From: a plasmid
Strand: one strand, 5' to 3'
Length of the DNA: 64,000 bases
Sequence record: NZ_CP067423.1
The notes below the pieces were generated by a model. That model was not told the origin of the DNA. It saw nothing but the letters and a program-made list of their open reading frames with translations, and searched no databases. Below are positions 10,827 through 27,667 of this stretch, piece after piece. Both the position numbers and the translations under genes were made by a program. Numbering within the stretch: the stretch's first letter is position 1; every line of letters begins with the position of its first letter.

Positions 10827-13800
10827 GTGTCCCACGACGACCCCTTCACGCTCGACCTGTTCGGCAATACCGCACTTTCCTCAGGTCTCGGCCTTGGCGT
10901 GACCGCCTTTTCCGACAGTGCGGCCAACGATCCGGACGATGACGACCCGGCCCCGCATTCTCCCACGCCTGCCGTGCCCGCCACGGCGGATGCTCAACTC
11001 TTGCGCCGGGCGCCCAATGGCGAGAACTTCCATCTCGCCGGCACGCGCGGTCTCGCCAAATCCTGGCGGGAGCGCGCCCGCGACAACATCGCGGCGATCC
11101 GGCTCGCCGCCTCGATCGTCGATGAGCAGCGTCCGGCCTCGGTCGACGAGCAGGCCGCGCTGATCCGGTTCACCGGCTTCGGCGCTTCCGAGCTCGCCAA
11201 CGGCGTGTTTCGTCTCCCAGGCGAGCTTGAGTTTCGCGAGGGCTGGGCGGACATCGGCGCCGACCTCGAGGACGCGATCGACGGCGGCGACTACGCGTCG
11301 CTCGCCCGCTGCACCCAGTATGCGCACTTCACCCCCGAATATATCGTCCGGGCCATCTGGTCGGGCCTGCAGCGGCTCGGCTTTCGCGGCGGCCGTGTGC
11401 TCGAGCCCGGTGTCGGCACCGGACTGTTTCCGGCGCTGATGCCGGCGGCGCTACATCCCGTCACCCATCTCACGGGCGTCGAGATCGATCCGGTTACCTC
11501 CCGGATCGCCCGTCTGCTGCAGCCGCGCGCCAAAATACTCAATCAGGATTTCGCGCGGGTCGATCTGCCGGCGCATTTCGACCTGGCGATCGGCAATCCT
11601 CCCTTCTCCGACCGCACCGTGCGCAGCGACCGCGCGTTGCGCGCGCTCGGCCTGCGCCTGCATGACTATTTCATCGTGAAGGCGGTTCGGGCGTTGAAGC
11701 CCGGCGGGCTGGCCGCCTTCGTGACCTCGAGCGGCACCATGGACAAGGCCGATGGCCGTGCACGCGGGACGATCGCGGCTGCGGCCGATCTTGTCGGCGC
11801 CATACGTTTGCCAGGGGGCAGCTTCCGTGCCGATGCCGGAACCGATGTCATCGTCGACGTCCTCTTCTTCCGCAAGCGCAAGGACGGAGAGGTGGCGGGC
11901 GATCAAGGCTGGCTCGATCTGGCGGAGGTGCGACCACTGAGCGAGGACGACGGGGGTATCCGGGTCAATCGCTGGTTCGCCGAGCACCCCGATATGGTTC
12001 TTGGCGAACATGCGCTGCGGCGCGGCATCTACGGTACCGACGAGACCTATACCTGCCTACCGCGCCCGGACGTCGATCTCGACGCCGCGCTCGCGACCGC
12101 GATCCAGGCGCTTCCAGAAGCCATCTATGACGGCAAGCCGGAAGACTGCGGTCCCGACGTAGACGACAGTGGCGACGACCCGGCATCAACTGCGACTATG
12201 CCGAACGGCGCGACCGCTCGTGAAGGCAGCTATTTCATAGGCAAGAACGCCGCCCTGATGCAAATGGTCGACGGCGAGGCCGTGACCATCACCGTCAGGA
12301 AGGGACGGGGAGGGGACGGCGTCTCCGACAAGCAGGCCCGCATCATTCGCAAGCTGATCCCGATCCGCGACGCCGTGCGCGAGGTGCTGAAACTCCAGGA
12401 ATTCGACCGGCAGTGGAAGCCGGCGCAGGTCAAGCTGCGCATTGCCTGGTCGAACTTCGTGCGTGAATTCGGGCCGATCAACTTCACCACCGTCTCGACC
12501 ACCGAAGACTCAGAAACCGGCGAAGTGCGGGAGACGCATCGCCGTCCCAATCTCCAGCCCTTCCTCGACGACCCCGACTGCTGGCTGGTAGCATCCATCG
12601 AGGACTACGACCTCGAGACCAATACCGCCCGGTCCGGCCCGATCTTCACCGAGCGCGTCATCGCGCCGCCGCCGCCGCCGATCATCACGTCGGCCGCCGA
12701 TGCCCTCGCCGTCGTGCTCAACGAACGTGGCCATGTCGACGCCGATCACATCGCGGAATTGCTGCATCGCGATGTCGCCGATGTCGTTGACGAGTTGGGG
12801 CAGGCGATCTTCCGGGATCCGACGTCCGGTTCCTGGCAAACCGCCGATGCGTATCTCTCCGGCGCCGTTCGCTCCAAGCTCGCTGCCGCCGAGGCCGCCG
12901 CTGCGCTCGATCCAGCCTTTGCCCGCAATGTCGAAGCGCTCAAGGGCGTCCAGCCCGCCGATCTCAGGCCCTCCGACATCACCGCCCGCCTCGGCGCACC
13001 CTGGATTCCGGCGACCGACATTGTCACATTTGTCAAACAGACGATGGATGCCGACATCAGCATCCATCACACGCCCGAACTTGCATGCTGGACGGTCAGT
13101 GCGCGCCAACTCGGCTGGAGCGCCGCCGGCACGACCGAATGGGGCACGCATCGTCGCGATGCCGGGCAGCTGCTGTCCGACGCGCTCAATTCCTCCATCC
13201 CGCAGATCTTCGACACGGTGAAGGACGGCGACACCGAACGGCGCGTCCTCAATACCGTCGAGACCGAAGCGGCCAAGGAAAAGCTGCAGAAGATCAAGAC
13301 GGCGTTCCAGAAATGGATCTGGAGCGATCCGGATCGCACTGACCGATTGGCGCGGCTCTACAACGACACCTTCAACAACATCGCGCCGCGAAAATTCAAC
13401 GGCGACCATCTCCTGCTTCCAGGCGCCTCCGGCGCCTTTTCTCTTTATGGGCACCAGAAACGGGCGATCTGGCGCATCATCTCGGCTGGCTCGACCTATG
13501 TCGCCCACGCCGTTGGCGCCGGCAAAACGCTCTCGATCGCGGCGGCGATCATGGAGCAACGCCGCCTCGGGCTGATCAACAAAGCCATGCTGGTCGTTCC
13601 CGGCCACTGCCTGGCGCAGGCGGCCCGCGAGTTTCTGGCGCTCTATCCAAATGCCCGGATTCTGGTCGCCGACGAGACCAATTTCGTCAAGGAGAAGCGC
13701 CATCGCTTTCTGTCGCGGGCGGCAACCGCAAATTGGGACGCGATCATCATCACCCATTCGGCGTTCCGCTTCATTTCGATTCCCTCGGCTTTCGAGCAGC

Positions 13801-15959
13801 AAATGATTCAGGACGAGCTCGAGGCTTACGAGGAGTTGCTGACCAAGGTCGACCGCGAGGACCGGCTTTCCCGAAAGCGCATCGAGCGCATGAAGGAGGG
13901 GCACAAGGAGCGGCTGGAGGCGCTGTCGAGCCGCAAGGACGATCTGCTCACCATCTCCGAGATCGGCATCGACCAGATCATCGTCGATGAGGCGCAGGAG
14001 TTCAGGAAGCTCAGCTTCGCCACCAACATGTCGACGCTGAAGGGCGTCGATCCCAGCGGCTCGCAGCGGGCCTGGGACCTCTACGTGAAATCCCGATTCG
14101 TCGAGACGAGAAATCCGGGCAGGACGCTCGTGCTCGCTTCCGGCACGCCGATTACCAACACGCTCGGCGAAATGTTCACCGTGCAGCGGCTGATGGACAA
14201 TGCTGCTCTCGCAGCGCGCGGACTGCACGAGTTCGACGCCTGGGCGTCCACCTTCGGCGACACCTCGACGGAACTCGAGCTGCAGCCGTCCGGCAAATAC
14301 AAGCCGGTCACGCGCTTTGCCCAGTTCGTCAACGTCCCCGAGCTGATCGCCATGTTCCGGTCCTTCGCGGACGTGGTGCAGCCCGCCGACCTGCGGAAAT
14401 ATGTGAAAGTTCCGGAGATCGCCGGCGGCAAGCGGCAGATCATCACGGCGGAGCCGACCACTGCCTTCAAGGCCTATCAGCGTCACCTCGATGATCGTAT
14501 CAAGGCCATCGAAGAGCGCGAGGGTCCGGCGCAGCCCGGCGACGATATCCTGCTCTCGGTCATCACCGATGGCCGCCATGCCGCGATCGACCTGCGCCTG
14601 GTCATGCCGGCCATGGACAATGAGGATGACAACAAGCTCAACGCGCTTGTCCGAAACACCTTCCGCATCTGGCAGGAGACGGCCGAGAACGAATATGTCC
14701 GCAAGGACGGCAAGCCCTTCGACAAGTCCGGCGCCGGCCAGCTCATCTTCTCCGATCTCGGCACCATCAATGTCGAAGCCTCCCGCGGCTTCTCGGCCTA
14801 TCGCTGGATCCGCGACGAGCTCGTCCGCCTCGGTGTGCCGCCGTCGGAAATCGCCTTCATGCAGGACTTCAAGAAGTCGGAGGCCAAGCAGCGGCTGTTC
14901 AACGAGTTCAATGCCGGCAAGGTCCGCATCCTGATCGGGTCGTCCGAAACCATGGGCACCGGCGTCAATGTGCAGGCGCGGCTGAAGGCGCTGCACCATC
15001 TCGACGTTCCCTGGCTCCCCTCCCAGATCGAGCAGCGCGAAGGCCGCATCATCCGCCAGGGCAATCAGCACGACGAAATCGGACTCTATGCCTATGCGAC
15101 GCTCGGTTCACTCGACGCCACCATGTGGCAGAACAATGAGCGCAAGGCCCGGTTCATCGCGGCGGCTCTATCGGGCGACACGTCCATTCGCCGCCTCGAG
15201 GATATGGGCGAGGGGCAGGCCAACCAGTTCGCCATGGCCAAGGCCATCGCATCGGGCGATCAGCGCCTGATGCAAAAGGCAGGGCTTGAGGCCGAGATCG
15301 CCCGTCTCGACCGGCTCCATGCCGCCCATATCGACGACCAGCACGCCATCCGCCGCCAGGTCCGCGACGCGGAGCGCGAGATCGAGCTTTCGAGCCGGCG
15401 CATCGCCGAAATCGGAACGGACATCGCGCGTCTGGTGTCGACCGCTGGCGATGCCTTCACAATGACCGTCACCGGAACCTCCTTCACCGAACGCAAGCTC
15501 GCCGGCCGCGCCTTGATGAAGGAGATCCTCACCCTTGTTCAGCTCAGCCAAGAGGGCGAGGTCGTCATAGCCGCGATTGGCGGCTTCGACCTGGAGTTCT
15601 CAGGCGAGCGCTTCGGCCGGGACGGGTATCGCTACACCACGGTGCTGATGCGCTCCGGCGCCGACTACGAGATCGACCTTGCCGTCACGGTCACGCCGCT
15701 CGGCGCGATTGCTCGCCTCGAGCATGCTCTGTCGAACTTCGAGGGCGAGCAGGATAATTATCGCTGTCGGCTGGAGGATGCCCGCCGGCGTGTAGCCTCC
15801 TATCAGCCACGTATTGGCGAAACTTTCGCCTTCGAGGCCGAGCTTGAACTGAAGCGGGAGCAGTTGGCCGATCTCGAAGCCGATCTCGCCGCCAGCACGG
15901 ATGACGGTCCCGGCGTTGTGGTAGGGGCGGCTGATCATGCGACCCGCCAGGCGGCATGA
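10827..15959 (+). CDS. Large N6-adenine DNA methyltransferase / SNF2-type helicase fusion protein (orphan methylase-helicase of conjugative elements)
   Basis: GTG start. The N-terminal amino-MTase catalytic motif NPPF (AIGNPPFSDRTV) and AdoMet-binding segment (VLEPGVGTGLF) are present. The central/C-terminal SF2 helicase shows Walker A (AVGAGKT) and a DEAQ box (IIVDEAQEF) plus helicase C motifs. Length is 1710 aa. Confidence 0.85.
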   Translation: MSHDDPFTLDLFGNTALSSGLGLGVTAFSDSAANDPDDDDPAPHSPTPAVPATADAQLLRRAPNGENFHLAGTRGLAKSWRERARDNIAAIRLAASIVDEQRPASVDEQAALIRFTGFGASELANGVFRLPGELEFREGWADIGADLEDAIDGGDYASLARCTQYAHFTPEYIVRAIWSGLQRLGFRGGRVLEPGVGTGLFPALMPAALHPVTHLTGVEIDPVTSRIARLLQPRAKILNQDFARVDLPAHFDLAIGNPPFSDRTVRSDRALRALGLRLHDYFIVKAVRALKPGGLAAFVTSSGTMDKADGRARGTIAAAADLVGAIRLPGGSFRADAGTDVIVDVLFFRKRKDGEVAGDQGWLDLAEVRPLSEDDGGIRVNRWFAEHPDMVLGEHALRRGIYGTDETYTCLPRPDVDLDAALATAIQALPEAIYDGKPEDCGPDVDDSGDDPASTATMPNGATAREGSYFIGKNAALMQMVDGEAVTITVRKGRGGDGVSDKQARIIRKLIPIRDAVREVLKLQEFDRQWKPAQVKLRIAWSNFVREFGPINFTTVSTTEDSETGEVRETHRRPNLQPFLDDPDCWLVASIEDYDLETNTARSGPIFTERVIAPPPPPIITSAADALAVVLNERGHVDADHIAELLHRDVADVVDELGQAIFRDPTSGSWQTADAYLSGAVRSKLAAAEAAAALDPAFARNVEALKGVQPADLRPSDITARLGAPWIPATDIVTFVKQTMDADISIHHTPELACWTVSARQLGWSAAGTTEWGTHRRDAGQLLSDALNSSIPQIFDTVKDGDTERRVLNTVETEAAKEKLQKIKTAFQKWIWSDPDRTDRLARLYNDTFNNIAPRKFNGDHLLLPGASGAFSLYGHQKRAIWRIISAGSTYVAHAVGAGKTLSIAAAIMEQRRLGLINKAMLVVPGHCLAQAAREFLALYPNARILVADETNFVKEKRHRFLSRAATANWDAIIITHSAFRFISIPSAFEQQMIQDELEAYEELLTKVDREDRLSRKRIERMKEGHKERLEALSSRKDDLLTISEIGIDQIIVDEAQEFRKLSFATNMSTLKGVDPSGSQRAWDLYVKSRFVETRNPGRTLVLASGTPITNTLGEMFTVQRLMDNAALAARGLHEFDAWASTFGDTSTELELQPSGKYKPVTRFAQFVNVPELIAMFRSFADVVQPADLRKYVKVPEIAGGKRQIITAEPTTAFKAYQRHLDDRIKAIEEREGPAQPGDDILLSVITDGRHAAIDLRLVMPAMDNEDDNKLNALVRNTFRIWQETAENEYVRKDGKPFDKSGAGQLIFSDLGTINVEASRGFSAYRWIRDELVRLGVPPSEIAFMQDFKKSEAKQRLFNEFNAGKVRILIGSSETMGTGVNVQARLKALHHLDVPWLPSQIEQREGRIIRQGNQHDEIGLYAYATLGSLDATMWQNNERKARFIAAALSGDTSIRRLEDMGEGQANQFAMAKAIASGDQRLMQKAGLEAEIARLDRLHAAHIDDQHAIRRQVRDAEREIELSSRRIAEIGTDIARLVSTAGDAFTMTVTGTSFTERKLAGRALMKEILTLVQLSQEGEVVIAAIGGFDLEFSGERFGRDGYRYTTVLMRSGADYEIDLAVTVTPLGAIARLEHALSNFEGEQDNYRCRLEDARRRVASYQPRIGETFAFEAELELKREQLADLEADLAASTDDGPGVVVGAADHATRQAA

Positions 15960-15986
15960 ATGGAAACCCGCTTTCCCGCCCTAAAC

Positions 15987-16562
15987 CTAAATGCGGTTCT
16001 TGAGATCTTCGAGGCTGGCAAGCTGCTGGCGCCTGCTGGCGACGGCTTCGCCAAGCAGCGCCCCAAGCTTGTCGTTGTACGCCTCGATCTGCTTTGTCGA
16101 GGTTTCCACATATTCGCGCAAGAGCTGCTCCTGGCGATCGATCTCCCGCTTCAACGTCTCGGCGTCGTTCCGACCTGACATGCCGATAATGACCCGCCGG
16201 TTGCTGATTTCGCCATGAGGCAGGGTGGTTGAGTATGGATTGGTCCGCAACCTAAACAGGCCAGGGTCGCCGGAGAACGCGAAGCTACGAGTTGCACGAA
16301 CTCCGTCGATCTCCACCATCCCGTCAAACATGTCGTGGACCCGCACGCGTGCCTCCTGCGCGTCCTTTTGTGGATTGTCGAAGTCCACCTTTAGCGGGGC
16401 GACACGAGCCTCGGGCAAAAGGGCGTGCACGATCTCCGCGTCAGACTTGATCAAGTCCACCCTGCTGACTTTCTGGCGGACGTGGTTGCCGACTGCGCCC
16501 TCCTGTGCGCGCAGGTACCGGTCGAGCGACTCTTCGAGAAACAGTACGTTGCCGATGATCAT
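15987..16562 (-). CDS. Hypothetical protein, the last gene of the minus-strand nuclease cassette
   Basis: No domain was recognised. An internal ATG at 16562 (MIIGNVLFLEESL) avoids overlap with the upstream gene. The longer ORF runs to 16658. Confidence 0.4.
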   Translation of the reverse strand: MIIGNVLFLEESLDRYLRAQEGAVGNHVRQKVSRVDLIKSDAEIVHALLPEARVAPLKVDFDNPQKDAQEARVRVHDMFDGMVEIDGVRATRSFAFSGDPGLFRLRTNPYSTTLPHGEISNRRVIIGMSGRNDAETLKREIDRQEQLLREYVETSTKQIEAYNDKLGALLGEAVASRRQQLASLEDLKNRI

Positions 16563-16611
16563 CGGACCTCCTATAGGCGCCGCGTAACGCGTGTTGCAGA
16601 TTGATCGGGAC

Positions 16612-17565
16612 TCACGAAAGCGCCTTGCGCAATGATCGAAGGAGCGCCTCGGCGTCATCGATCTTTTTCAGGATGTCGGGGTCGCCCTTGAGATCCTGCA
16701 ACGTGGTCCAGGGTACCCCCTTCATCGCTTCAACCGCGGCCTCCAGATCCCCGGACAATCCGCCCTTTGGCTTCTTCTCGGTGGGTCCCAGACGCAACAT
16801 TGCAGAATCGAGATCCCCCGCGTCGCTGAGGAAATGCGCGCGTGCCACCGGATCGGGGAGGATCGATCGTAGTTTGCGCAGGTCCTTGGAGTTGGTTATG
16901 CGCTTGTCGTTCACCTTCTTGACGACGGCGTCGACGATGCTGGGAGTGAACAGCTTCTTGCTGACGCCCATCATCTCACGCGCCCAGGTGATGGCGGCGC
17001 TTGGGTCGCGAAGGCTGGTGAACTTCTCCGACAGCTCGAAAATATCGACCAGTTTGTCCAGTTCCCGAACGGTGATTCCGAGTATGTTCGCGGCGCTGGC
17101 GCGTCCCATCAGGTCGACAAGGCGGTAGGCCACCATTTCCTTCTCTTTGGCGTCCCATTCCTTGCGCTGCCGATGGATATAGATCCACGCGCGAAGCCGA
17201 TCCTCGTCACTCAGTGTGCGGTCGGTAACCTCGATGGGAAGCTGGCGGAATTCTTCTTTCCCCTGTTCTACCAAGGCCCGCGAATTCGTCCACCGGCGAT
17301 CGCCATCGATGATGCGAAACTTTCCGGGGAAATCGGGATGGGGTTCGACGAGTAGTGGCTCGAACAAACCGCCATTGGCTTCGATCTGCCGTTGCAGTTC
17401 TTCGTCAACCTTAGGCCCGAGCCTCGGCTGCTTGTCATTGGGAAGGATGGAGTCGATGTCAGCCTTCGTGCGGTACGTCCGAAGAACGGTACGATCGAGC
17501 CGGCGCTCCTGGAGGTTAACGACGTTGTCGCGTTCGCGACCCGCCATCGGGACGGGGTTATTCAT
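16612..17565 (-). CDS. ParB N-terminal-domain / DUF262-like nuclease-NTPase domain protein
   Basis: The ParB/Srx-type motif FRIIDGDRRW is present, cf. DGQQR of DUF262 and GERRW of ParB. The start is chosen at the Met with a GGAG-like RBS (17565). The ORF extends to 17613. Confidence 0.55.
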   Translation of the reverse strand: MNNPVPMAGRERDNVVNLQERRLDRTVLRTYRTKADIDSILPNDKQPRLGPKVDEELQRQIEANGGLFEPLLVEPHPDFPGKFRIIDGDRRWTNSRALVEQGKEEFRQLPIEVTDRTLSDEDRLRAWIYIHRQRKEWDAKEKEMVAYRLVDLMGRASAANILGITVRELDKLVDIFELSEKFTSLRDPSAAITWAREMMGVSKKLFTPSIVDAVVKKVNDKRITNSKDLRKLRSILPDPVARAHFLSDAGDLDSAMLRLGPTEKKPKGGLSGDLEAAVEAMKGVPWTTLQDLKGDPDILKKIDDAEALLRSLRKALS

Positions 17566-19165
17566 TATCCTGCTCCCACACCCCCGCCGTGCCGATGATC
17601 GTATCGATCTCATTACTCAGCTCAGCGCGCACTTTCTGCACCGACCGAATGAGCTCGCCCTGACGCTTCCAGACAGATTCGTGCGCCTTCTTTTCCTTTA
17701 CCTGGATGTCGAGCAGGTCGTCCGTGTGAGTGTCGATCCGGGCAATCAGATCGGTACAGCGCTCCGAGGTAATGAAGTCATAGAGCGCAGCCGTCTTCTG
17801 GGTCTTCTCCTCACCGCTCATGCGCAGAATATGGGTCTGCACGATGTGGTGGCGGATCAGCTGAACCAGAGCGACAACGCGGGCAGGATTGGCTAGCAGA
17901 ACGCCATCCTGATGGTGCAGCTGCCGCGCGCCGGCGGGAAACTTGCTCGTCGAAAGAATGGCATGTTCCGCCTTGGCTGCCATTTGGTCGGTTGCAAGCT
18001 TGCTGACGAAGTCGTTGCGCCATGCGCCATGGTTCTTCGAGTCGTAGATGATGGTGCCGCACTCCTTGCCGTTGTGAATGACGACATGGATAATGTCGGC
18101 ACCGGGCTGCCCTTTGTTGACGCGGTCGATCCTGTCGCCCTCGAACTCAGCCTTCAGAGCTTCGAACAGATCGACCTCGGCGCCCTCGCCAAGCTCCTCG
18201 TTGGTCTTCTTGTCGAGAGCCCGAGTCAGCTCCGCCACCTTCGCGGACAGCTTGAGCTTTTCCTCAAACGCGAGAGCCTTCTCGGCATTGACGGCCGCAG
18301 TCTGAGCGAGCTCGAGCGCCTCGCGCTGTTCTTGGAGGCGCTGATCCAGCAGGGCTTGATGATCGGCGAGCTGCTTCTCGACCGTAGCCGCTTTGGCTTC
18401 CGCGTTCTTCCTCGCCTCTTCAAGCTCAGTGAGCCTGCTTTGGGCGGCCACAGCGGCAGCCTCAGAAGCTTCCGAACGGATTTCGATCTCGCGCGCCGCT
18501 GCGGACTCTGTCAGCGCCGTGATCTTCGCTTCCGTTTCAGCTGTAATGGTGTCGAGCTGTGCCTTGAGGCTCGTCCCGGCCTCTTCAGCCTTCAGCCTGG
18601 CGGCCTCCGCAGACGCGACCCGCTCGTTGGCCGCCGCTTCAGCGGCGACCTTGGCCTCTGCCCGAATACTGTCCTGCTTCGCAAGGGCCTCCTGCCGGAC
18701 CGCCTCGATAGCGGCGCCGCGCTCCTGCTGTTGCTGGGCAAGCCGCTCCTCGAGAGCGACCCGCATCTGTTCGGCATTCTGCTTTTCGGCCTCCGCTTGC
18801 GTCACGCGGCTCAACAGGAGATCCTGAGCCTCTTTGCTTGCGAGTACCGTCGCCGCGATCGCCTCCTGGGCTGCGGCCTCGGCGGCCTTGCGGCCCTCTT
18901 CGCGGGCGAGGACGGCTTTGGCGGCGCCGTCCTTGTTGGCCTTGTCAACGGCATCGGCCTTCTCGCGGGAAAACTGCTCCTGAAGGCGAGCCGAGAGTTC
19001 CTCCGCAGTTTTCTTCTGCCGCGTCTCGATCCGCGCTTTAATCTCATCCATCTGGTCGTGCGGGATCTGCTGTTCACACAGCGGGCAAACCTCGTCGTGA
19101 TCGTGCAGGAACGACGACGAGGGAACAGGAGTCGCCTTTAGAAGGGGTGATGCTGACGCGGCCAC
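17558..19165 (-). CDS. Zn-finger / long coiled-coil / C-terminal PD-(D/E)xK-like (DUF2130-like) protein
   Basis: The N-terminus has HDHDEVCPLC (an H-x-H-x3-C-x2-C metal site). It is followed by about 250 aa of Ala/Glu/Lys/Gln-rich heptad-like sequence. The C-terminal domain carries a candidate D...(D/E)xK site (GADIIHVVIHNG...IIYDSKNHG). Confidence 0.55.
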   Translation of the reverse strand: MAASASPLLKATPVPSSSFLHDHDEVCPLCEQQIPHDQMDEIKARIETRQKKTAEELSARLQEQFSREKADAVDKANKDGAAKAVLAREEGRKAAEAAAQEAIAATVLASKEAQDLLLSRVTQAEAEKQNAEQMRVALEERLAQQQQERGAAIEAVRQEALAKQDSIRAEAKVAAEAAANERVASAEAARLKAEEAGTSLKAQLDTITAETEAKITALTESAAAREIEIRSEASEAAAVAAQSRLTELEEARKNAEAKAATVEKQLADHQALLDQRLQEQREALELAQTAAVNAEKALAFEEKLKLSAKVAELTRALDKKTNEELGEGAEVDLFEALKAEFEGDRIDRVNKGQPGADIIHVVIHNGKECGTIIYDSKNHGAWRNDFVSKLATDQMAAKAEHAILSTSKFPAGARQLHHQDGVLLANPARVVALVQLIRHHIVQTHILRMSGEEKTQKTAALYDFITSERCTDLIARIDTHTDDLLDIQVKEKKAHESVWKRQGELIRSVQKVRAELSNEIDTIIGTAGVWEQDNE

Positions 19166-19282
19166 ATTGACCTCCGGGGTTGCTAGAAACTGGGACCTAT
19201 TTTCTCCTACTTGATCCTGAAGTCAAGTACTGATATTTTGTTGGATGTGGGCTCGCATCAGGCGCGCTCCGGAAAGGCAATC

Positions 19283-19471
19283 ATGACAAAGACTTTCAAG
19301 CCGGGGCATGCTGCCCCGCGTTCTGGACAATACGGGATTCTCGGGCCCCGTGGTGGAGACACCGGCAAAGAGCGCACCGTTACGCGCGGCGAGCCGATGC
19401 CGCCGACGCCGAAGTCCGGCCAGACCTACAAGTTGGTCGATGCGACCCGGAACAAGAGCGGTCGCCCGTGA
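19283..19471 (+). CDS. YjzC-like small protein (62 aa)
   Basis: MTKTFKPGHAAPRSGQYGILGPRGGDTG...TYKLV matches the YjzC-family pattern (FKPG..AP.SG.Y). An AT-rich promoter-like region and a GGAAAGG RBS lie upstream. Confidence 0.45.
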   Translation: MTKTFKPGHAAPRSGQYGILGPRGGDTGKERTVTRGEPMPPTPKSGQTYKLVDATRNKSGRP

Positions 19472-19505
19472 TCCGAAAAGAACGGCGACCTTCTTTGGTC
19501 GCCGT

Positions 19506-20285
19506 TCATGCTGCCTTCGCCACGCGCGGGTCGAGGTCGAGACCGCAAACCCAGTTCGCCCATGATTTTGCGAAATGGAGGAAGGCTTCCTCAGTCGTCA
19601 CCAGAACGCGATAGGTTTCAGCCTGCTCGCGTTGTTCAGGTGTTTCCTCGTAACGGGACAGGAAGGCCATATAGACCATCCGGTTTCCAGCAATCTCCTG
19701 ACCGTTCTTGTCGAGATAGATGATATTGCCGTGCGCCAAGGCGTTGCGAAGCACGCGAAGAACCTCGCCGGCCTTGCGATTCTCGATGGTGTTCGCATCA
19801 TCGGAAAGTGGATGCCTTCCTTCCTGATCGTGCCAGCCATGCACTTCATCAACGGAATTGACGATGCGCGATTGCCGCCATGCTCCTACGTCCGGCGCAG
19901 ACTGCCAGAACGGCGCCTCAAAGAATTTGGTTTTTTCGAGCGTCTTGAGGCTTTTCACCAGATCGACGTCGCGCTCTCCATCAACCAGGACATGCGATGC
20001 CCGCATACGTTCGTAGGGAATTGTAAGGATCGCCGCTGCCGCCAGCAGACCGAACGAGCCGAGCAAATCGTGCTTGCGCGCAGGTTCTTCCAGCAATTCG
20101 ATCAATTGTAATGCGCGTTGCGGATATTCGATGGCAAATCTGTCCGGTACGCCCATGTGTCCTCCTAGCCAAATGGCTTGCGATCGTAGCCGCGGAAATT
20201 CGCTAAAGCAGCCGTTCCGTTCCAGGGATCTGATGATCGCTTCTAGCGTCCTGCTCATTCCAGAAAGCGACAGGAACGGCGACAT
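19506..20285 (-). CDS. HEPN-domain protein (Rx4H motif)
   Basis: The C-terminal region contains LRVLRNALAHGNIIYLD, a canonical HEPN R-x4-H motif. The start is uncertain: ATG 20393, 20285 or 20258. A strong hairpin at 20339-20357 argues for one of the downstream starts. Confidence 0.5.
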   Translation of the reverse strand: MSPFLSLSGMSRTLEAIIRSLERNGCFSEFPRLRSQAIWLGGHMGVPDRFAIEYPQRALQLIELLEEPARKHDLLGSFGLLAAAAILTIPYERMRASHVLVDGERDVDLVKSLKTLEKTKFFEAPFWQSAPDVGAWRQSRIVNSVDEVHGWHDQEGRHPLSDDANTIENRKAGEVLRVLRNALAHGNIIYLDKNGQEIAGNRMVYMAFLSRYEETPEQREQAETYRVLVTTEEAFLHFAKSWANWVCGLDLDPRVAKAA

Positions 20286-20585
20286 TCTCGGTTCTTGCGA
20301 GACGATCAGCAAGCAGCCGCAACCAATTGGCAAAATAGGGAGGGAAAGAAACCCTCCTCGCGGATCGGCCGCACCGCTGACGCCTGCGCTCAACCGCCTG
20401 GCTCGCGATCCCGGCCGCGTCGTCCTTCGCAGGGCTGATTAGCCCCGCTTGGCTTGCCGGGCAGGGATGCTCGACAGGCAGTTGCACCGGCCCGTCCGCT
20501 CCGCGGGCCGGGGGATGTCTTCAGAAAAGAAGACGGAGAAGGACCCGCGATCGGCGGTGTCCGCAACCCGAAACGGAGCATCCCA

Positions 20586-22307
20586 ATGGAACTGAAGTTT
20601 GTCGATCCGCGCGCGCTCAAGGAGAATCCCGACAAGGCGCGGCGCTCCAAATCGAGCCCGCAGGCGGACGCCCTGTTGCTGGCCACGATCAAGGTTGTCG
20701 GCATCGTGCAGCCGCCTGTCGTCGCCCCCGAGACCGAAGGCGGCAACGGCTTTGTCATCGATGCCGGGCATCGTCGCGTGAAGCAGGCAATCGCGGCGGG
20801 CCTCGAGGAAATCGCCGTGCTGGTGATCGAGCGCGCGGAGGACGGTGGCGCCATGCGATCGCTGGCCGAGACGCTCGCCCATGAGCAGCTCAATCCCGTC
20901 GACCAGTGGCGGGCGATCGAGCGCCTGGTTGCGCTCAACTGGACCGAGGAGGCGATCGCCATCGCGCTGGCATTGCCGGTTCGCCAGATCAAGAAGCTGC
21001 GGCTTCTGGCGAACGTCCTGCCATCAATGCTCGATCAGATGGCCAAGGGCGACATGCCCGATGAGCGCCAGCTTCGCACCATCGCTTCCGCCGCACTCGA
21101 GGATCAGAAAGAGATCTGGAAGAAGCACAAGCCATCCAAGGCCGACCCGCAGGTCTCATGGTGGGCTGTCGCGCAGGGTCTGACCAAGACCCGCATGTTC
21201 GCAAAACATGCCAGTTTCGGGGATGATCTGGCACATGCCTACGGAATCGCCTGGGTCGAGGATCTGTTCGCCCCGGCAGACGAGGACAGCCGTTATACGA
21301 CCGACGTCGACGCCTATCTTGGCGCCCAGCAGGAATGGATGGCCAACAACCTTCCCAAGCGCGGCGTCATCGTCGACGCGGGCCAATGGGGCGACGCCAA
21401 GCTGCCACCGAAGGCCGAGCGAGTTTATGGCAAGGCCGGCAAGTCCGATCATACCGCGATGTATCTCGACCGCGAGGGCAAGGTGCAGACGGTCGCCTAT
21501 CGCATGCCCGAGGCAAAGAAGCCGAAGGGCAAGGGTGATGCAACCGACGCCGCAGGTACAGACACGGGGCTGGTCGCTCCCAAGGCCCGTCCGGACGTGA
21601 CGCGCAAGGGGATCGAGATGATCGGGGACTTCCGCACCGATGCGCTGCACGAGGCGCTCGCCCGCGCGCCAATCGAGGAGGACATGCTGATGGCGCTGCT
21701 CGTTCTCGCCTTCGCGGGCAGGAACGTCTCCGTCGATTCCGGTTCCTCGGGCACGGTCTACGGCCACGCGCGGCTGGAGCGTCATGCAGCCCTTCTTTTC
21801 GGGGAAGACGGCAGGCCCGTATACGATCGTGAGACGCTCAACCAGGTCGCGCGTAAGGTCCTGATCGACGTCCTCTCATGCCGGGAGAACAGGACCAACA
21901 GCGGCATCGTCGCTCGGGTCGCCGGCGATACCGTCGGCGCCGACGGCTTCCTGCCGAACATGGGCACGGACGAGTTCATGTCGTGCCTGTCGCGGCCGGC
22001 GCTGGAGGCGTCCTGCAAGGACACGCCAGTCCTGCCGCGTGCCCGCGTCAAGGACACGCGCGCAGCCCTCGTCGAGCACTTCAAGGAAGGCCACTTCGTC
22101 CATCCCTCGGCCCTGTTCGCGCCCGACGTCGCCGAGCTGACGAGCTGGACGGCCCGGTACGCCGCGCCGGACGAGGCTGACGACGACACCGCGCGGGAAG
22201 TCGATGAGCTCGACGGTGATCAGACCGGGGCGACGGCAAACGAGCATCCGGTCGATGACGGCCACACCGTCGAAGAAACTGAAGCCTGGCGCGTCGCCGC
22301 CGAATAG
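20586..22307 (+). CDS. ParB-like nuclease domain protein of the ICE/plasmid leading region
   Basis: The N-terminal ParB/Srx domain is present (VQPPVV...GNGFVIDAGHRRVKQAIAAGLEEIAVLVIE). Start is at ATG 20586 (MELKFVDPRALKENPD). The long C-terminal region has an acidic tail. A rho-independent terminator follows. Confidence 0.75.
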   Translation: MELKFVDPRALKENPDKARRSKSSPQADALLLATIKVVGIVQPPVVAPETEGGNGFVIDAGHRRVKQAIAAGLEEIAVLVIERAEDGGAMRSLAETLAHEQLNPVDQWRAIERLVALNWTEEAIAIALALPVRQIKKLRLLANVLPSMLDQMAKGDMPDERQLRTIASAALEDQKEIWKKHKPSKADPQVSWWAVAQGLTKTRMFAKHASFGDDLAHAYGIAWVEDLFAPADEDSRYTTDVDAYLGAQQEWMANNLPKRGVIVDAGQWGDAKLPPKAERVYGKAGKSDHTAMYLDREGKVQTVAYRMPEAKKPKGKGDATDAAGTDTGLVAPKARPDVTRKGIEMIGDFRTDALHEALARAPIEEDMLMALLVLAFAGRNVSVDSGSSGTVYGHARLERHAALLFGEDGRPVYDRETLNQVARKVLIDVLSCRENRTNSGIVARVAGDTVGADGFLPNMGTDEFMSCLSRPALEASCKDTPVLPRARVKDTRAALVEHFKEGHFVHPSALFAPDVAELTSWTARYAAPDEADDDTAREVDELDGDQTGATANEHPVDDGHTVEETEAWRVAAE

Positions 22308-22337
22308 GCCGCCAATCCACTTCCTCCCAACCCACCC

Positions 22338-22375
22338 CGCCGCCGGCAATCGCGCCGGCGGCGGTTCTGTTTTCA
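22338..22375 (+). terminator. Rho-independent terminator after the parB-like gene
   Basis: CGCCGCCGGC-aatcgc-GCCGGCGGCG is a 10-bp GC stem. It is followed by gttctgtttt. Confidence 0.6.
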
Positions 22376-22400
22376 TCAACAGCACCACTGGAGAAACAAT

Positions 22401-22874
22401 ATGTCCGCTCAATTGATCTACGATCTCGTGCCGCTCGGTTCCATCATCCGCTACTCCGACGGCACACCGCGCCCGCCCGAGCGTCATCGCAAGAAACTCT
22501 CGGCATGGGAGAGCGCCAATAGCGGCGGCCGCCTGATCCGCAAGACGCCAGCCCGGCAGACCGGGCAGTATTCGTCGCCCGCGCATTTCACGCTGCATGA
22601 AGGCGATTATGGCAGCGGCGGTGTCATCGTCCTGCGCGTCCACAAGAGCTTTTCGGTCGATTGCGGCTCGAAGTTCGTGGTGATCTCCCGACCCGCACCG
22701 GGCTCGGTCCAGGTCTTCGATCGCGCCGGCGAGGGTGCCGAACTCGTCTATCTCGCCGCCAACCGGCAGGACGCGGAGACCTGGCTGCAATCTCATCGGT
22801 ATCCTAACGCGGTGCTCGAGGACGTATCGGCCGATACCGCGGCGGCCGACGCCGTCGAGGGGAGGGCGGCATGA
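22401..22874 (+). CDS. Hypothetical conserved element protein
   Basis: The ORF has a good RBS (GGAGAAACAAT-ATG) and is translationally coupled (ATGA) to the next gene. No domain was recognised. Confidence 0.5.
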   Translation: MSAQLIYDLVPLGSIIRYSDGTPRPPERHRKKLSAWESANSGGRLIRKTPARQTGQYSSPAHFTLHEGDYGSGGVIVLRVHKSFSVDCGSKFVVISRPAPGSVQVFDRAGEGAELVYLAANRQDAETWLQSHRYPNAVLEDVSADTAAADAVEGRAA

Positions 22875-23503
22875 ACGCGACTGCTCAAACCGAGGCAACG
22901 ATCGACAACACCTCCGGATTCCCGGAGGTGTATTACGGGCGAACGAGCGATGGCCTCTTCGCGGCACTGGTTGGGGAGAACGCTTTTGCGATGATCCCTG
23001 CCTACAATGGCGGACGCTATCTCGGCCATGCATGGAAGCTGCCTCTGCCCATCTCCGAATGGAAACAGTCCAGCTTCTATGGTCACGGCGGGCAGCTCGA
23101 CGGCAAAGCGGCGTTCCGCGCCCGTGTCGAGGAGAACGCCCGACATCAGGCACAATTGCGTAGACTGGCCCGCCGCAGCATCCCGGCTCGGCAAGCAACC
23201 CCATGGGGGCTCTCGGATCATGCCACGCACTATGCCGAAGGCGTCGTCTGCCATTCGACCCCGAGCCATGGCGGGTTCCATCTCGACCCCGACCGCAATG
23301 CCCACATCCATCCCCTTCTGAGAAGCGCCGACGGCTTCTACGAGGAGGATTGCTGCTGGGCGGCCGTTGCGCAGGCCTTTCCCGATCTTTTCACCGATTT
23401 CGAGAAACGTTGCGCCGAAGAGACCATCCGGCACTGGTATCCCGAGGCCTGGCCGCGATCCCTCACGTCCACACCTAAACGATTGCGGGAGGCCGCCTCA
23501 TGA
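22871..23503 (+). CDS. Hypothetical conserved element protein
   Basis: It is coupled to its flanking genes by 4-nt overlaps. No motif was recognised. Confidence 0.5.
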   Translation: MNATAQTEATIDNTSGFPEVYYGRTSDGLFAALVGENAFAMIPAYNGGRYLGHAWKLPLPISEWKQSSFYGHGGQLDGKAAFRARVEENARHQAQLRRLARRSIPARQATPWGLSDHATHYAEGVVCHSTPSHGGFHLDPDRNAHIHPLLRSADGFYEEDCCWAAVAQAFPDLFTDFEKRCAEETIRHWYPEAWPRSLTSTPKRLREAAS

Positions 23504-23886
23504 CGATTGCAGAGCACATCGCCATAATGGCGCGCATGGAAGCTGCCCGCCGGGAGACGCATGCCCATCTCGGGCTGATCGAGCGGCAGATTGCGGCGCG
23601 CGCGGAGCGCCTGATGACCACCTTCCGCGCCAGATCACGCGATTACCGGAAGTCCAGGTCGACATGGAGCCATGCCGACGAGCAGCTCTACCGGGCCACG
23701 CTATCGGAGCTGAACTTTTCCCGTCACCGCGAGGTCGATGGTCTGTCGCGCAAGCTCGCCCGCCAGGATGCGGCGATCGCCGCCTTCCGTCGCCGGCACG
23801 GGTTCTCGGAGGTCGATCCGGAGCTGGATATGGCGGTCCTCCGCGGCCTGATCCTTCGCAGCGCGTCTCCATGCGCGGTTTCGTGA
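23500..23886 (+). CDS. Hypothetical protein
   Basis: It is the third member of the translationally coupled trio. It is basic and predicted helical. Confidence 0.4.
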   Translation: MTIAEHIAIMARMEAARRETHAHLGLIERQIAARAERLMTTFRARSRDYRKSRSTWSHADEQLYRATLSELNFSRHREVDGLSRKLARQDAAIAAFRRRHGFSEVDPELDMAVLRGLILRSASPCAVS

Positions 23887-24338
23887 GCCCCGACCTGCGA
23901 TCAGGAGGGCAGCCCTGTCCGAAACCGTGTGGCGGGCTGTGCGGGTAACGGGGCAATATCCGGGTAGGGCCTGCGGCGACTGTCCGGCCGTGATGCCGGC
24001 GAAGCGGATTGATCTGTCGCACTTCCTCGCGCGAGCCAATTCATGGAAACGACCCCGTGCCGGTCTTCCCGGCGGGTTTGCTGCGGTCTGAACCGGCGGC
24101 TGACCCCTTCAAGGCCGCTTTGCGCCGCGATGCGGCCGGAGCCCGCCGGTCTCGACAAGGCTGGCCCGCGTTCCGCGCAGGGCTGTTAGCCCCGCTTGTC
24201 CGCAAGCCAACCTTGCTCGCCTGGCAGGCCCCGGACCCTGAAGCGTCCAGTTTCCGCCGGTTCTCTTTGACCGCACCCGCAGGGAAGACCGGCACGGGGC
24301 CGGATCGCCCGAAGGGCATCGCTAGAAAGGATTGCTTC

Positions 24339-24926
24339 ATGTCCAGTTCAACCCGCTCCACCAAGACCAAGGCTCGCGTCGTCCAACTCCGCAAGGGCAC
24401 CACCCTCGAAATGGTGCGCCTGTGCTGCCCGGATGCCAACCAGGCCGCACTCATCTCCGAGAGCTTCGGGCTCGCTGTCCTCGACAGCGACGGTATCCGG
24501 GACTTCCACGAGCGCACCCTGATCGAAAGCGCCGACACCCTCTCCGACGGCCTTTCCGAGAAGGCCATGCAGATCCATCTCCAGCGGATCGTCGGTTCCC
24601 ATGTCGGGTCTGCCTACGGGGCGGGGCAGTTCTATTCCAAGGCTGTCACCGAGGCCAAGGACGCGACCGCCCGGCTCGCCAACGACATGCGCGATGAGGA
24701 TCGCGACGGCCCGGTCGGGTTCGACAGCGCCGCCCAGCGCAAGCGTGAGTTCGCCGCCGACATGGGTATCCAGGCCCACGCTCTGCGCATGGCCGCCGAG
24801 GGCGTGGTCGCAGCCTACGAGCACATCGTCGGCGAGAGCTGGAAGCCCTACGAGCGTCAGGCCGAAAATCCCGGCCAGGCCGTCAGCCGGCAGGCCGCCG
24901 ACCTGCAGATGGCCGCTCTCGGATAG
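24339..24926 (+). CDS. Hypothetical protein (195 aa)
   Basis: Start is at ATG 24339 (MSSSTRSTKTKARVV). A copy of the conserved palindromic motif lies about 140 nt upstream, and a GGCGGAGC-ttcg-GCTCCGCC stem-loop follows the stop. Confidence 0.5.
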   Translation: MSSSTRSTKTKARVVQLRKGTTLEMVRLCCPDANQAALISESFGLAVLDSDGIRDFHERTLIESADTLSDGLSEKAMQIHLQRIVGSHVGSAYGAGQFYSKAVTEAKDATARLANDMRDEDRDGPVGFDSAAQRKREFAADMGIQAHALRMAAEGVVAAYEHIVGESWKPYERQAENPGQAVSRQAADLQMAALG

Positions 24927-25003
24927 GGGCCGCGGGCGGAGCTTCGGCTCCGCCCATCCTCGGGGGCTCCCACCCTTGGGATCGCCCGCCGTTCGAACGC
25001 CAT

Positions 25004-25327
25004 CTATCCCGAGGAGTATCGTCTCGAGGTTGAGGGACTTATCGAGGCATGGCGGCCGGAAGTGTGGGCCCGTTCGACAGAATCCCGCCTCGGCTGATAG
25101 CCTCGCATCCTCTTAGCTCGCAACAGGTCGAGGAATAGGCTGACCGCATCTAGCTCGTTGTCGAACGAATGCTGGACCGTTCGGCCTCGTGTTCCGATCC
25201 GGCCCCACCGGCGAACGAGGCGGGTCTGGCCGAACAGGGTCTCCTCGATCGACAGCGCGTAGAACCGCGCCATCCTCCGGTCCGGGTCTGTGCGTTCGAC
25301 ATAGAGATGGTATGGCTGCGCGATCAT
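25004..25327 (-). CDS. WGR-domain protein
   Basis: The WGR signature is LFGQTRLVRRWGRIGTRGRT...KRMRGY. The start is assumed at the internal Met (MIAQPYHLYVE). The ORF extends to 25381. Confidence 0.55.
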   Translation of the reverse strand: MIAQPYHLYVERTDPDRRMARFYALSIEETLFGQTRLVRRWGRIGTRGRTVQHSFDNELDAVSLFLDLLRAKRMRGYQPRRDSVERAHTSGRHASISPSTSRRYSSG

Positions 25328-25711
25328 GCTGAGCAGAATCGCGCAGCCGGAATCCGTCGTCCAATGACAGGTTTGAATCACTGGGAAGGGATCGATTTAT
25401 TCCCGTGATAGGTGGCGGGAACTTCAGCAGGTATAGGGCGGCCTTACCCGCGTCCGGCTTGCGCGGGACCGGGAGACGGAGGGAAGCAGGAAGACGCATG
25501 GCGCGGCCGGCGCAATCGCGGCCGTCACGATTGGTGGTCCTGCTCCGGTCCTCGTTCCGCGAAACGGCGAAGCCGTCCTCCACTGCCGTTCCGGCCCGGC
25601 TGCGACCTCTCTCATTCTTCCGATTCATCCTCCGGGTTCGCGGACCTGCGGTCCTCTCGCGGGCGGACCTCGTGACGGCCGCGATCGGCGCGGCCTCGAA
25701 TGGAGGTTCGA

Positions 25712-26638
25712 ATGATGAACAGGAAAGACAGCAAACCCCGCGTCGACATCTACGCGAAGATCACCGACCGCATCGTCGCGGATCTCGAGAAAGGCGTCCG
25801 CCCATGGGTAAGACCCTGGAGCGAAGCCAACACCGCCGGCCGCATCACGCGACCGCTGCGGCATAATGGAACGCCCTACCAGGGCATCAACATCATCCTG
25901 CTCTGGTCGGAGGCGGTCGCACGCGGCTTCGCTTCGCCCATCTGGATGACGTTCAAGCAAGCGATCGAGCTTGGCGGGCATGTCCGCAAGGGCGAGAGCG
26001 GCTCGACCGTCGTCTATGCCAGCCAATTCACCAAGACCGAAACCGACGAGCGCGGCGATGAGGTCGAGCGCGGTATCCCGTTCCTTAAGGCCTATTCGGT
26101 CTTCAACGTCGACCAGATCGAGGGATTGCCGGACCACTATTACGGTGCGCCGCCGCCGGTGACCGATCCCGTCACGCGCATCGCCCACGCTGATGCGTTT
26201 TTTGACGCGACCGGCGCCAGGGTCGTCTATGGCGGCGCCAAGGCATTCTACGCGCCCTCGTCCGACCACATCCAGCTCCCAGTCTTCGAGAGCTTCCGCG
26301 ACGCGGAATCCTTCGTTGCCGTCAGGGCGCACGAGACCATCCACTGGACAGCTCCGGCCCACCGGGTCAACCGCGATCTCAGCCGCTACCACAAGGATCG
26401 TAGCGAACGCAGTCGCGAGGAGCTGATCGCCGAACTGGGGGCGGTTTTCCTCTGCGCCGATCTCGGCATCGTACCGGAGCTCGAGCCGCGGCCTGACCAC
26501 GCCAGTTACCTCGCGTCCTGGCTCGAGGTGCTCTCCAACGAGAAGCGCTTCATTTTCTCGGCCGCCGCGCACGCTCAACGCGCAGCGACCTACCTGCACG
26601 ATCTTCAGCCGGCGGCCAGGATTGCGGAGGCGGCCTGA
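25712..26638 (+). CDS. ardC: ArdC-type antirestriction protein (N-terminal ssDNA-binding domain plus C-terminal zincin-like metalloprotease)
   Basis: The ArdC N-terminal domain is present (YAKITDRIVADLEKGVRPWVRPW...GTPYQGINIILLW...PIWMTFKQA). The C-terminal HExxH motif is HETIHWT. Confidence 0.85.
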   Translation: MMNRKDSKPRVDIYAKITDRIVADLEKGVRPWVRPWSEANTAGRITRPLRHNGTPYQGINIILLWSEAVARGFASPIWMTFKQAIELGGHVRKGESGSTVVYASQFTKTETDERGDEVERGIPFLKAYSVFNVDQIEGLPDHYYGAPPPVTDPVTRIAHADAFFDATGARVVYGGAKAFYAPSSDHIQLPVFESFRDAESFVAVRAHETIHWTAPAHRVNRDLSRYHKDRSERSREELIAELGAVFLCADLGIVPELEPRPDHASYLASWLEVLSNEKRFIFSAAAHAQRAATYLHDLQPAARIAEAA

Positions 26639-27057
26639 TGCCAGGGCCCGACCGTTGCCGTGCGGGAACTCTGCCGCTGGCCGGTCAATGACGGGAGGTC
26701 GGGATGGGGATGGCACCTCTCGCCGCGCGGGGATCCGCAAGGTGATGCCGATGTAGGGACGTCCGTCTTCATTCCGGTTGTTTCTGCTACGGGCACGCCC
26801 AACTGCGTCCTCGATGTGGCTGGTCTGACCGAAGGCCGATCTCGCTGCGCTCGGTCTCGCTCTCATCCCCGCAACGGCTGGTCTCGACTTTCTTCCCCTG
26901 ACGGCTTCGCCGCCATTCCGCGCGGATCAAGAAAGTCTCATCCTGCCGCCCTCCACTGACGTTCCGGCCCGTTGGGTGCCGGTCGATCGCCTCCGGTCTG
27001 TCGACCGCCATCGAGGTCGCGGCGGTCGCGGCCCGAGAAATCAAAGGAATGAGACAA

Positions 27058-27369: not shown

Positions 27370-27450
27370 GGCTCCCGCCAGAGGGCTCCGCCGCAAGGCG
27401 GGGCCTTCAGCCTTCCACCGACGAGCAGCCACAACCGAAAGGAACCATAC

Positions 27451-27645: not shown

Positions 27646-27667
27646 CCGGCGCCACTGCACGCCCTCG

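Follow-up and report, generated by a model that had tools for sequence, protein, structure and literature searches.

Is the block of genes that lies between two backbone genes of the Aminobacter plasmid pMDW3 a single multi-gene system, or have several independent units come to lie side by side? We analyzed a window of 64,000 nucleotides from this plasmid (sequence record NZ_CP067423.1; positions are those of the window unless another locus is named) and focused on a 4.4-kb insertion that a preliminary description had presented as one four-gene, multi-nuclease cassette. The insertion is very probably a composite of three independent cargo modules and not one system. Judged from gene content, these modules are an orphan HEPN gene (HEPN216), an operon encoding a DUF2130 protein and a ParB-like protein (ParB317) together with a divergent YjzC-like gene, and the stand-alone gene p191. 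For the insertion as a whole we lean, with modest confidence, towards a composite mini defense island that has a ParB-switch-controlled nuclease conflict module at its core. The features are as follows, with protein lengths in amino acids (aa).

15960 to 20356: the insertion (putative mini defense island), 4.4 kb, from the methylase-helicase stop (15959) to the conserved stretch 5' of the gene for the 573-aa backbone ParB
15987 to 16562, minus strand: p191, 191 aa
16612 to 17565, minus strand: ParB317, 317 aa
17558 to 19165, minus strand: DUF2130 protein, 535 aa
19192 to 19226, minus strand: predicted promoter-operator of the DUF2130-ParB pair, made up of TTGACT, 16 nt and GAAAAT, and having AGGA repeats spaced ~10 bp apart that end in TAGGTCCC
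19283 to 19471, plus strand: YjzC-like gene, 62 aa
19506 to 20156, minus strand: HEPN216, 216 aa

Gene starts were taken from the Prokaryotic Genome Annotation Pipeline (PGAP), and those of the 216-aa and 191-aa proteins are backed by the lengths of their homologues. The four minus-strand open reading frames (ORFs) that had been placed at 15987-20393 are confirmed, and all of the motifs reported for them were found: RNALAH in HEPN216, DGDRRW in ParB317, and HDHDEVCPLC and YDSK in the 535-aa protein. The inference of an insertion also stands, while the gene starts, gene count, domain labels and replicon type are revised here. A fifth gene had been missed, the 62-aa YjzC-like/phrog_3202 ORF on the plus strand. 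Because this gene splits HEPN216 from the other three, HEPN216 is its own transcription unit and the cassette is not one operon. The DUF2130 gene, by comparison, overlaps the ParB317 gene by 8 bp. The description of three nuclease or NTPase folds is sound for the PD-(D/E)XK assignment of the DUF2130 protein, but read as three nuclease folds it is overstated, as ParB317 looks like a nucleoside triphosphate (NTP)-switch DNA-binding protein and carries no mark of a nuclease.

The case for separate modules comes from what does and does not travel together. A genome scan for ParB317, taking one genome per species, yielded 80 loci with 61-98% identity, and neither HEPN216 nor p191 was detected within 10 kb of ParB317 in any of them (0/80 for each, tblastn). 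In the nearest relative, a Pelagibacterium locus (L017), the pair is 95-98% identical and sits in the same backbone, with a 499-aa gene in the HEPN216 position. All four cassette genes occur together only in pMDW3-type plasmids and near-identical metagenomic contigs, so that essentially nowhere outside the pMDW3 lineage do they co-localize. One cooperating multi-nuclease system, acting in defense, abortive infection or counter-defense, could be argued from the placement of all four genes in the same 4.4-kb insertion and on the same strand, from the repetition of this arrangement in sister plasmids and metagenomic contigs, and from a Mesorhizobium island where homologues of HEPN216 (50%) and p191 (62%) lie ~5 kb apart. 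However, the recurrences all belong to the same plasmid lineage at 96-100% identity, the HEPN gene is swapped for another in the closest relative, a plus-strand gene and a separate promoter part HEPN216 from the rest, and the HEPN and p191 genes have other conserved partners elsewhere. A single system, as originally proposed, is on this evidence most improbable, and the four genes should not be pursued as a unit because cloning them all together would confound three unrelated modules. The suggestion of defense cargo was right in kind, as the cassette genes are of defense/conflict type.

The DUF2130 and ParB genes themselves form a conserved pair. The DUF2130 gene is immediately upstream of ParB in ~76 of the 80 loci (tblastn). 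Two further loci (L055 and L056) give only a weak N-terminal DUF2130 match, yet in each of them ParB adjoins a long ORF that belongs to the DUF2130 cluster; another (L071) gives a partial match, and the last (L072) is a 1.2-kb contig, too short for a DUF2130 gene. When flanking ORFs were clustered, every family beyond DUF2130 and ParB was present in no more than 5 of the 80 loci. The loci span Alphaproteobacteria, Acidobacteriota, Actinomycetota, Myxococcota, Verrucomicrobiota, Nitrospirota, Spirochaetota and Chloroflexota, and the best 120 clusters of ParB317 homologues, 83-99% identical, represent numerous genera of Alphaproteobacteria. Genomic copies are present in at least 143 species genomes. 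Most lie in chromosomes, on contigs of up to 5 Mb, and the pair occurs on 4 of 72,556 plasmid records. No relatives of ParB317 were found in IMG/VR by a pattern-limited search.

The degree of conservation of ParB317 is a product of constraint. Its nonsynonymous divergence (dN) is 0.10-0.19 when proteobacterial and acidobacterial sequences are compared and rises to 0.33 for the most distant comparison, against ~0.2-0.5 for the DUF2130 nuclease domain and 0.6-0.9 for the DUF2130 coiled coil, while the synonymous divergence (dS) of the pair is either undefined or no lower than 1.4. Synonymous sites are thus saturated, and the high ParB identity is explained by an old divergence during which purifying selection was strong. 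Recent horizontal spread was considered as the source of this identity and rejected, given the saturated dS and a nucleotide identity of only 66-76%. When the window was compared with the loci by blastn, nucleotide homology in most of them began and ended within the two coding regions.

What surrounds the pair is highly variable and takes in many conflict and mobile-element genes. Neighbors include QatABCD downstream, either type I restriction-modification (RM) and AbiE genes or a set encoding 63-, 243- and 437-aa proteins upstream, and Wadjet nearby. Further neighbors are ThsB-TIR, an Eco57I-like RM enzyme beside an integrase, a CBASS cyclase with a patatin, KAP NTPase, HipA, DarT, SIR2, dCTP deaminase, Abi_2, Vsr, insertion sequence (IS) elements and integrases. 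Housekeeping genes are found in the flanks too. Neither the DUF2130 protein nor ParB317 matched anything in PADLOC-DB v2.0.0 at E≤0.1. Literature on DUF2130/COG4487 yielded only its PD-(D/E)XK classification, a search of the ParB, CTPase and defense literature gave no account of the pair, and it is absent from a 2025 PNAS survey of the ParB-CTPase fold (PMC12704722) and from the Menshen paper (PMC12065111). These results support the view that the DUF2130-ParB pair is not a named system and is undescribed in PADLOC and the literature searched; the preliminary statement that the cassette is not a named defense system thus holds for its central pair.

We assessed the domain architecture of each protein of the pair. 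The DUF2130 protein consists of an N-terminal CxxC knuckle (C27, C30), an Ala/Glu-rich region of ~260 residues that from its composition we read as a coiled coil, and a C-terminal PD-(D/E)XK domain (E330, D357, D375-S376-K377). Residues 305-499 match Pfam DUF2130 (PF09903) at 88.9 bits (cutoff 26.7, E 4.4e-25), and DUF2130 (COG4487) has been classed as a PD-(D/E)XK family without assigned function (Steczkiewicz et al. 2012, PMC3424549), so the earlier label of a DUF2130-like PD-(D/E)xK C-terminal domain was accurate. Conservation of the catalytic residues had been proposed as a check, and in a family alignment of 64 rows (the query and 63 homologues) E330, D357, D375-S-K377 and C27-x-x-C30 are each at least 95% conserved. 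The HxHx3CxxC metal site that had been reported is present in the sequence, and its CxxC is conserved family-wide, but its two histidines are not; they are common in proteobacterial and acidobacterial members. A Rad50-like apex zinc hook was considered and rejected, as the CxxC is at residues 27-30, at the N-terminal end; the Rad50_zn_hook profile scores 14.7 bits against a cutoff of 24.3 (E 0.028, below threshold).

DUF2130 genes also exist without a ParB317 partner. Rhizobial plasmids commonly carry such solo genes, which are distant relatives of ~425-431 aa with 25-30% identity over the nuclease domain; examples are found on pMLa (L121, 5428-6723), where the gene lies between a ParA gene and DUF736/ArdC-like leading-region genes, and on Bradyrhizobium pUSDA123-1 (L122, 4458-5732). 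Conversely, on Rhizobium ruizarguesonis plasmid p4 (L002, 7956-9231) an IS5 element has cut DUF2130 down to its last ~110 codons, while a 314-aa ParB (86% identical) is intact and adjoined by a hypothetical gene and an N-6 DNA methylase gene.

ParB317 had been labeled ParB/DUF262-like. The ParB half of this label is well founded: Boxes I (Q46-P47-R48), II (G88-D89-R90-R91-W92) and III (H131-R132-Q133-R134) are followed by a helix-turn-helix (HTH) region, and the protein aligns with Caulobacter ParB 6t1f and Noc 7ng0 over residues 37-211, covering all three boxes and the HTH. The Box I QPR and the Box II/III motifs GDRRW and RQR also align to 7ol9. In the family alignment the box residues reach at least 95% conservation, with Box III represented by R132-Q133-R134. 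The profile scores are modest, with Pfam ParB_N at 25.5 bits, just below its cutoff of 26.3, and sub-cutoff matches to the NCBIfam ParB, RepB and Noc models. The DUF262 half does not stand, and a DUF262/GmrSD-like reading was rejected, as there is no DUF262 match in Pfam and no PADLOC match, and GDRRW is a motif of ParB/Noc type. Although the family is annotated as a partition protein, no ParA/CbiA family is among the 25 commonest flanking families per set, and none flanks the pair in the window. By these alignments ParB317 is an orphan ParB/Noc-type protein with a CTPase-fold N-terminal domain and an HTH, and it is predicted to bind nucleotide.

In many loci a conserved, predicted promoter-operator precedes the pair. 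Upstream of DUF2130 the order is TTGAC, 12-17 nt, TAGGAnAAAA repeats, TAGG(A/T)CC(T/C)A, a ribosome-binding site and the start codon, and the family consensus at the operator end is TAGGWCCTA. The strict pattern was found in 47 of 77 loci, with Actinomycetota and Acidobacteriota among them. The operator 9-mer occurs 76 times in 1.37 Mb, 52 of these directly upstream of DUF2130, and is present as a single copy in the window. This conserved candidate site (TAGGWCCTA and AGGA repeats) differs from the 16-bp parS palindrome and is located in the promoter of the operon. Two Thermoanaerobaculia loci that carry the pair (L093 and L095) have, in addition, arrays in which a 9-bp unit, ATAGGACNN, is repeated in tandem 4-5 times, often as inverted array pairs, and the core of this unit is the same as that of the operator upstream of DUF2130. 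In L093 the arrays occupy other intergenic sites (2612-2649, 5182-5301, 12760-12798, 15846-16086, 17342-17390 and 20590-20709), and in L095 there is one at 16791-16838. These arrays may be extra sites for a ParB317-like protein, whose binding is a prediction. A Thermoanaerobaculia genome with these arrays also holds unrelated 7-bp arrays.

The YjzC-like gene is an accessory of this module. Its 62-aa product matches phrog_3202 (E 3.3e-11) and, below cutoff, Pfam YjzC (E 2.2e-4). A YjzC-like gene divergent from DUF2130 was found in 10 of the 80 genome loci and additionally in L011-L016 and L107-L109, only in the alphaproteobacterial branch, and it is often the first of the variable cargo genes. 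In L108 (4818-6268) it is followed on the same strand by a 140-aa gene and a ThsB-TIR gene, and in L011 (5924-8272) by 243- and 437-aa genes. Cargo genes led in this way would share their operator region with the DUF2130-ParB pair. In the window, unlike in these two loci, the YjzC-like gene is convergent with HEPN216.

HEPN216 constitutes the second module. The reported RNALAH motif is of the Rx4-6H type and is retained in homologues: among 46 of them R137, N138, A139 and L140 are invariant and H142 is at least 90% conserved. The top Pfam match is PF18736 (pEK499_p136 HEPN), at 13.4 bits with a cutoff of 26.6; 30 of the 46 homologues match this profile below threshold (best E 6.6e-4), and UniRef names 75-76% identical homologues pEK499_p136-like HEPN. 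The structural model has a predicted local distance difference test (pLDDT) of 89, fold support for HEPN is weak, and Foldseek of the model against the PDB gave no match at E≤0.001. From motif and profile, HEPN216 is a distant member of the pEK499_p136-like HEPN group and presumably an RNase. Its homologues in chromosomes of Rhizobium leguminosarum and on a plasmid of Shinella have a 298-aa Abi_C gene after them, with a 4-bp overlap. No Abi_C homologue or remnant was detected in the window by tblastn, and because this partner gene is missing HEPN216 is an orphan here.

The third module, p191, had been described as lacking any recognizable domain. It matches the PADLOC candidate PDC-S54 at E 2.8e-24 over profile positions 5-196 of 410, the N-terminal half, whereas full-length relatives match the whole profile (positions 1-407; E ~1e-122 to 1e-138). 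Because the entire C-terminal half is missing, p191 is not itself a PDC-S54 gene; its homology is to one domain. Its AlphaFold2 model (pLDDT 91) comprises a small alpha/beta domain and a 57-residue C-terminal helix, with no effector domain, and Foldseek of this model against the PDB gave no match at E≤0.001. Homologues were collected by a word-indexed search (21 clusters) and a profile search (1348 representatives). Some stand alone, with ~190-205 aa, and the others form the N-terminal domain of a longer protein, the long forms being full PDC-S54, TIR fusions (P0325, P0347) and a HEC-07-like fusion (P0351). On Bosea and Rhodopseudomonas plasmids a 201-aa homologue lies 5' of a HamB-like helicase (~1040 aa), beside TIR and caspase genes, and other stand-alone copies have varied neighbors, among them an ArdC/DUF2958 leading region and an E2/E1/JAB island. 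On these matches p191 is a modular, defense-associated domain that has no effector here; it is probably an adaptor or sensor remnant and less likely to work with a partner in trans. The PDC-S54 N-terminal domain thus appears as a modular unit joined to TIR, HEC-07-like and Hachiman-type helicase partners, which bears on how candidate systems are assembled.

The three modules are carried by a conjugative plasmid. At 100% identity the window matches pMDW3 of Aminobacter sp. MDW-2 as well as two sister plasmids. The replicon, which had been taken for an integrative and conjugative element, is pMDW3 of Aminobacter, a Ti-type conjugative plasmid because it bears tra genes (traG, traC, traA, traF, traB, traH), a trb operon and a traI/traR-like pair. 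PLSDB/MOB-suite typing calls pMDW3 'non-mobilizable' despite the annotated TraA relaxase, TraG and full trb operon. The cassette is 16-20 kb from the traC-traA (origin of transfer, oriT) region, on the traC/traG side, among the genes for ArdC, the 573-aa ParB and a 1710-aa methylase-helicase, surroundings that can reasonably be regarded as the leading region of the plasmid.

In Agrobacterium pAt12D1 the backbone order is DUF3991/toprim, DUF1419, DUF3085, a 1700-aa methylase-helicase, ParB and ArdC, with a gap of 366 bp between the methylase-helicase and ParB genes. Backbone homology in the window stops near 15790, at the 3' end inside the helicase gene, and picks up again at 20357 (alignment and blastn). 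The GC content of the insert is 0.57-0.64 and that of the flanks 0.63-0.68, and the inserted cassette genes are on the minus strand while the backbone genes are all on the plus strand. These findings support the interpretation of the block as horizontally acquired cargo between two backbone genes that adjoin in pAt12D1, and the prediction that the flanks would be contiguous in relatives was borne out by the 366-bp gap and by the homology resuming at ~20357.

Several observations concern the edges of the insertion. A terminator-like hairpin on the minus strand (20339-20357) falls exactly on its boundary. Beyond it, ~230 bp of non-coding sequence (20357-20585) directly 5' of the backbone 573-aa ParB gene has 82-88% nucleotide identity to Agrobacterium, Aminobacter niigataensis and Pelagibacterium plasmids and could be a leading-region regulatory element, for example a single-strand promoter; Rfam gave no match at gathering threshold in the whole window, this stretch included. 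In a metagenomic sister plasmid (L115, 6629-11834), an IS66 element (tnpA, tnpB, tnpC) is inserted just past p191 and the methylase-helicase is cut to 804 aa, and because of this IS66 insertion the cassette boundary appears to be a place of ongoing rearrangement. Elsewhere in the window, at ~42405-52046 (pMDW3 record 18067-27708), is a large minus-strand block encoding a SNF2-related protein, DUF1156, a 159-aa hypothetical protein and DUF499, which we take to resemble a DISARM-type defense system. If this resemblance is real, the plasmid bears further defense cargo beside its tra genes.

How might the DUF2130-ParB pair work? The operon is probably self-contained and autoregulated. In the mechanism we envisage, ParB317 dimers would occupy the TAGGWCCTA and AGGA repeats via the HTH and thereby repress the operon. 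ParB317 would also serve as a CTP/NTP-gated clamp that senses, or loads onto, invading, replicating or end-containing DNA; once loaded, it would recruit or license the coiled-coil PD-(D/E)XK nuclease, which may dimerize via a shared CxxC (Cys4) zinc site, and the DNA would be cut. The outcome would be defense against phage or plasmid, or abortive infection. Among the roles we considered for the pair, defense or conflict is the most likely, ahead of addiction, regulation and establishment, though unproven, and the statement that the pair is a defense system has in our estimate a little less than an even chance of being correct. The fully specified proposal is a new kind of immune system: a canonical ParB CTPase clamp of HTH type would sense DNA for, or load, a coiled-coil PD-(D/E)XK nuclease that is zinc-linked, and would repress itself via the TAGGWCCTA operator, which accompanies the pair in several phyla. 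This proposal is tentative and on the unlikely side; if true, it would be the first canonical ParB-CTP switch in immunity.

Several points weigh against a defense role. The binding of ParB317 to its operator, to NTP and to the DUF2130 protein is predicted only. A sequence search of the DUF2130 protein against solved structures gave no match, and for this reason nuclease activity is something we infer from motif conservation. The defense reading draws on gene neighborhood only, and not on enrichment over a random-gene background. Immune proteins are not usually under purifying selection as strong as that seen in ParB317, and such selection fits a housekeeping-like or regulatory role equally. 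Finally, the arrays at many intergenic sites in Thermoanaerobaculia could indicate a broader regulatory or DNA-organizing role.

The alternatives account for parts of this evidence. The pair might be a toxin-antitoxin (TA)-like addiction module in which the nuclease is the toxin and ParB317 the DNA-binding antitoxin and autorepressor, so that it stabilizes the islands or plasmids that host it and any defense is secondary. Two overlapping genes with a palindromic operator across their own promoter would suit such a module, as would a scattered, mobile distribution amid TA and defense genes and the presence on a large low-copy plasmid. But the proteins are far bigger than typical type II TA proteins, and an NTP-switch ParB fold with three conserved boxes exceeds what an antitoxin needs, which leaves addiction unlikely. 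The R. ruizarguesonis ParB, intact after truncation of DUF2130 by IS5, might be raised against addiction too, but it fits either reading and is not diagnostic. The extreme purifying selection and the partition annotation would be in keeping with ParB317 as mainly a KorB-like regulator or DNA organizer, of cargo operons or of element segregation, with DUF2130 as an accessory DNA-processing factor and no immune role for the pair. The position of the operator in a divergent promoter region that also faces YjzC-led cargo genes agrees with this, as do the arrays of the 9-bp unit in the Thermoanaerobaculia loci. Against it, the flanking-gene family counts contain no ParA family, the pair is mainly chromosomal at variable positions and rare on plasmids, the 64-kb window has one operator copy, and the pair strictly retains its nuclease residues next to completely variable cargo; we regard a KorB-like role as distinctly unlikely.

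The least probable of these roles for the cassette, and in our view a very unlikely one, is an anti-defense or establishment function of the plasmid leading region, in which p191 would be an effector-less decoy of host PDC-S54/TIR sensors or the pair would protect or process incoming DNA. Its appeal lies in location: the cassette is amid leading-region ArdC, backbone ParB and methylase-helicase genes at 16-20 kb from oriT, a stand-alone p191 homologue is beside DUF2958 and ArdC in a Hyphomicrobium element, and solo DUF2130 genes are near DUF736 and ArdC in other conjugative backbones. However, the cassette genes run opposite to the uniformly plus-strand leading genes, which would argue against early expression from the transferred strand, and the pair is overwhelmingly chromosomal, beside defense systems, and rare on plasmids. 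A nuclease conflict module under ParB control is the favored account. At 2.6 kb the pair is a compact module of two genes that has a promoter-operator of its own, and its conservation extends from Alphaproteobacteria to Acidobacteriota and Actinomycetota. If it is a defense system, it would be a very tractable model, since its operator is defined, its NTP boxes are conserved and its catalytic residues are clear, and it would extend the reach of the ParB-CTP switch from segregation and regulation to nuclease control.

Each module can be set beside known systems. p191 shares only positions 5-196 of the 410-position profile of PADLOC PDC-S54, a single-gene candidate, and is without its C-terminal half. 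HEPN216 retains the RNxxxH motif of the pEK499_p136 HEPN family, with PF18736 as its top Pfam match, and differs from HEPN/Abi_C modules of this family in scoring below the gathering threshold, in its weak fold support and in its missing Abi_C partner; the family has been tied to RM, Pgl and other defense contexts (Anantharaman et al. 2013, PMC3710099). Of a type II TA module the pair shows the overlapping genes and the operator architecture. Like Rad50/SbcC zinc-hook proteins, Lamassu (LmuB and nuclease) and Wadjet (JetABCD), it combines a long predicted coiled coil, a CxxC and a nuclease domain that would be directed against foreign DNA, but it has no ABC/SMC ATPase head or PADLOC match, its CxxC is N-terminal and its nuclease domain is fused to the coiled coil. 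Chromosomal ParB, for its part, recruits SMC. With GmrSD, SspE, DndB and Menshen NsnA (PMC12065111) the pair has in common a ParB-fold, predicted NTP-binding DNA sensor, a nuclease and a setting in defense islands; those proteins, however, belong to the DUF262 branch (DGQQR/QRxxxW), whereas ParB317 has no DUF262 match and the nuclease is a separate coiled-coil DUF2130 protein. The CTP-dependent clamps ParB, Noc and KorB (ParABS; RK2 KorB) resemble ParB317 in Boxes I (QPR), II (GDRRW) and III (RQR), in the HTH and in a palindrome by the protein's own gene. Unlike in these clamps, ParB317 is without ParA, its candidate site differs from parS, its obligate partner is a PD-(D/E)XK nuclease-family protein, and it occupies variable chromosomal positions in defense islands. 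ParB317 is an 'orphan ParB' in the sense of PMC12704722, which describes many orphan ParBs on mobile elements.

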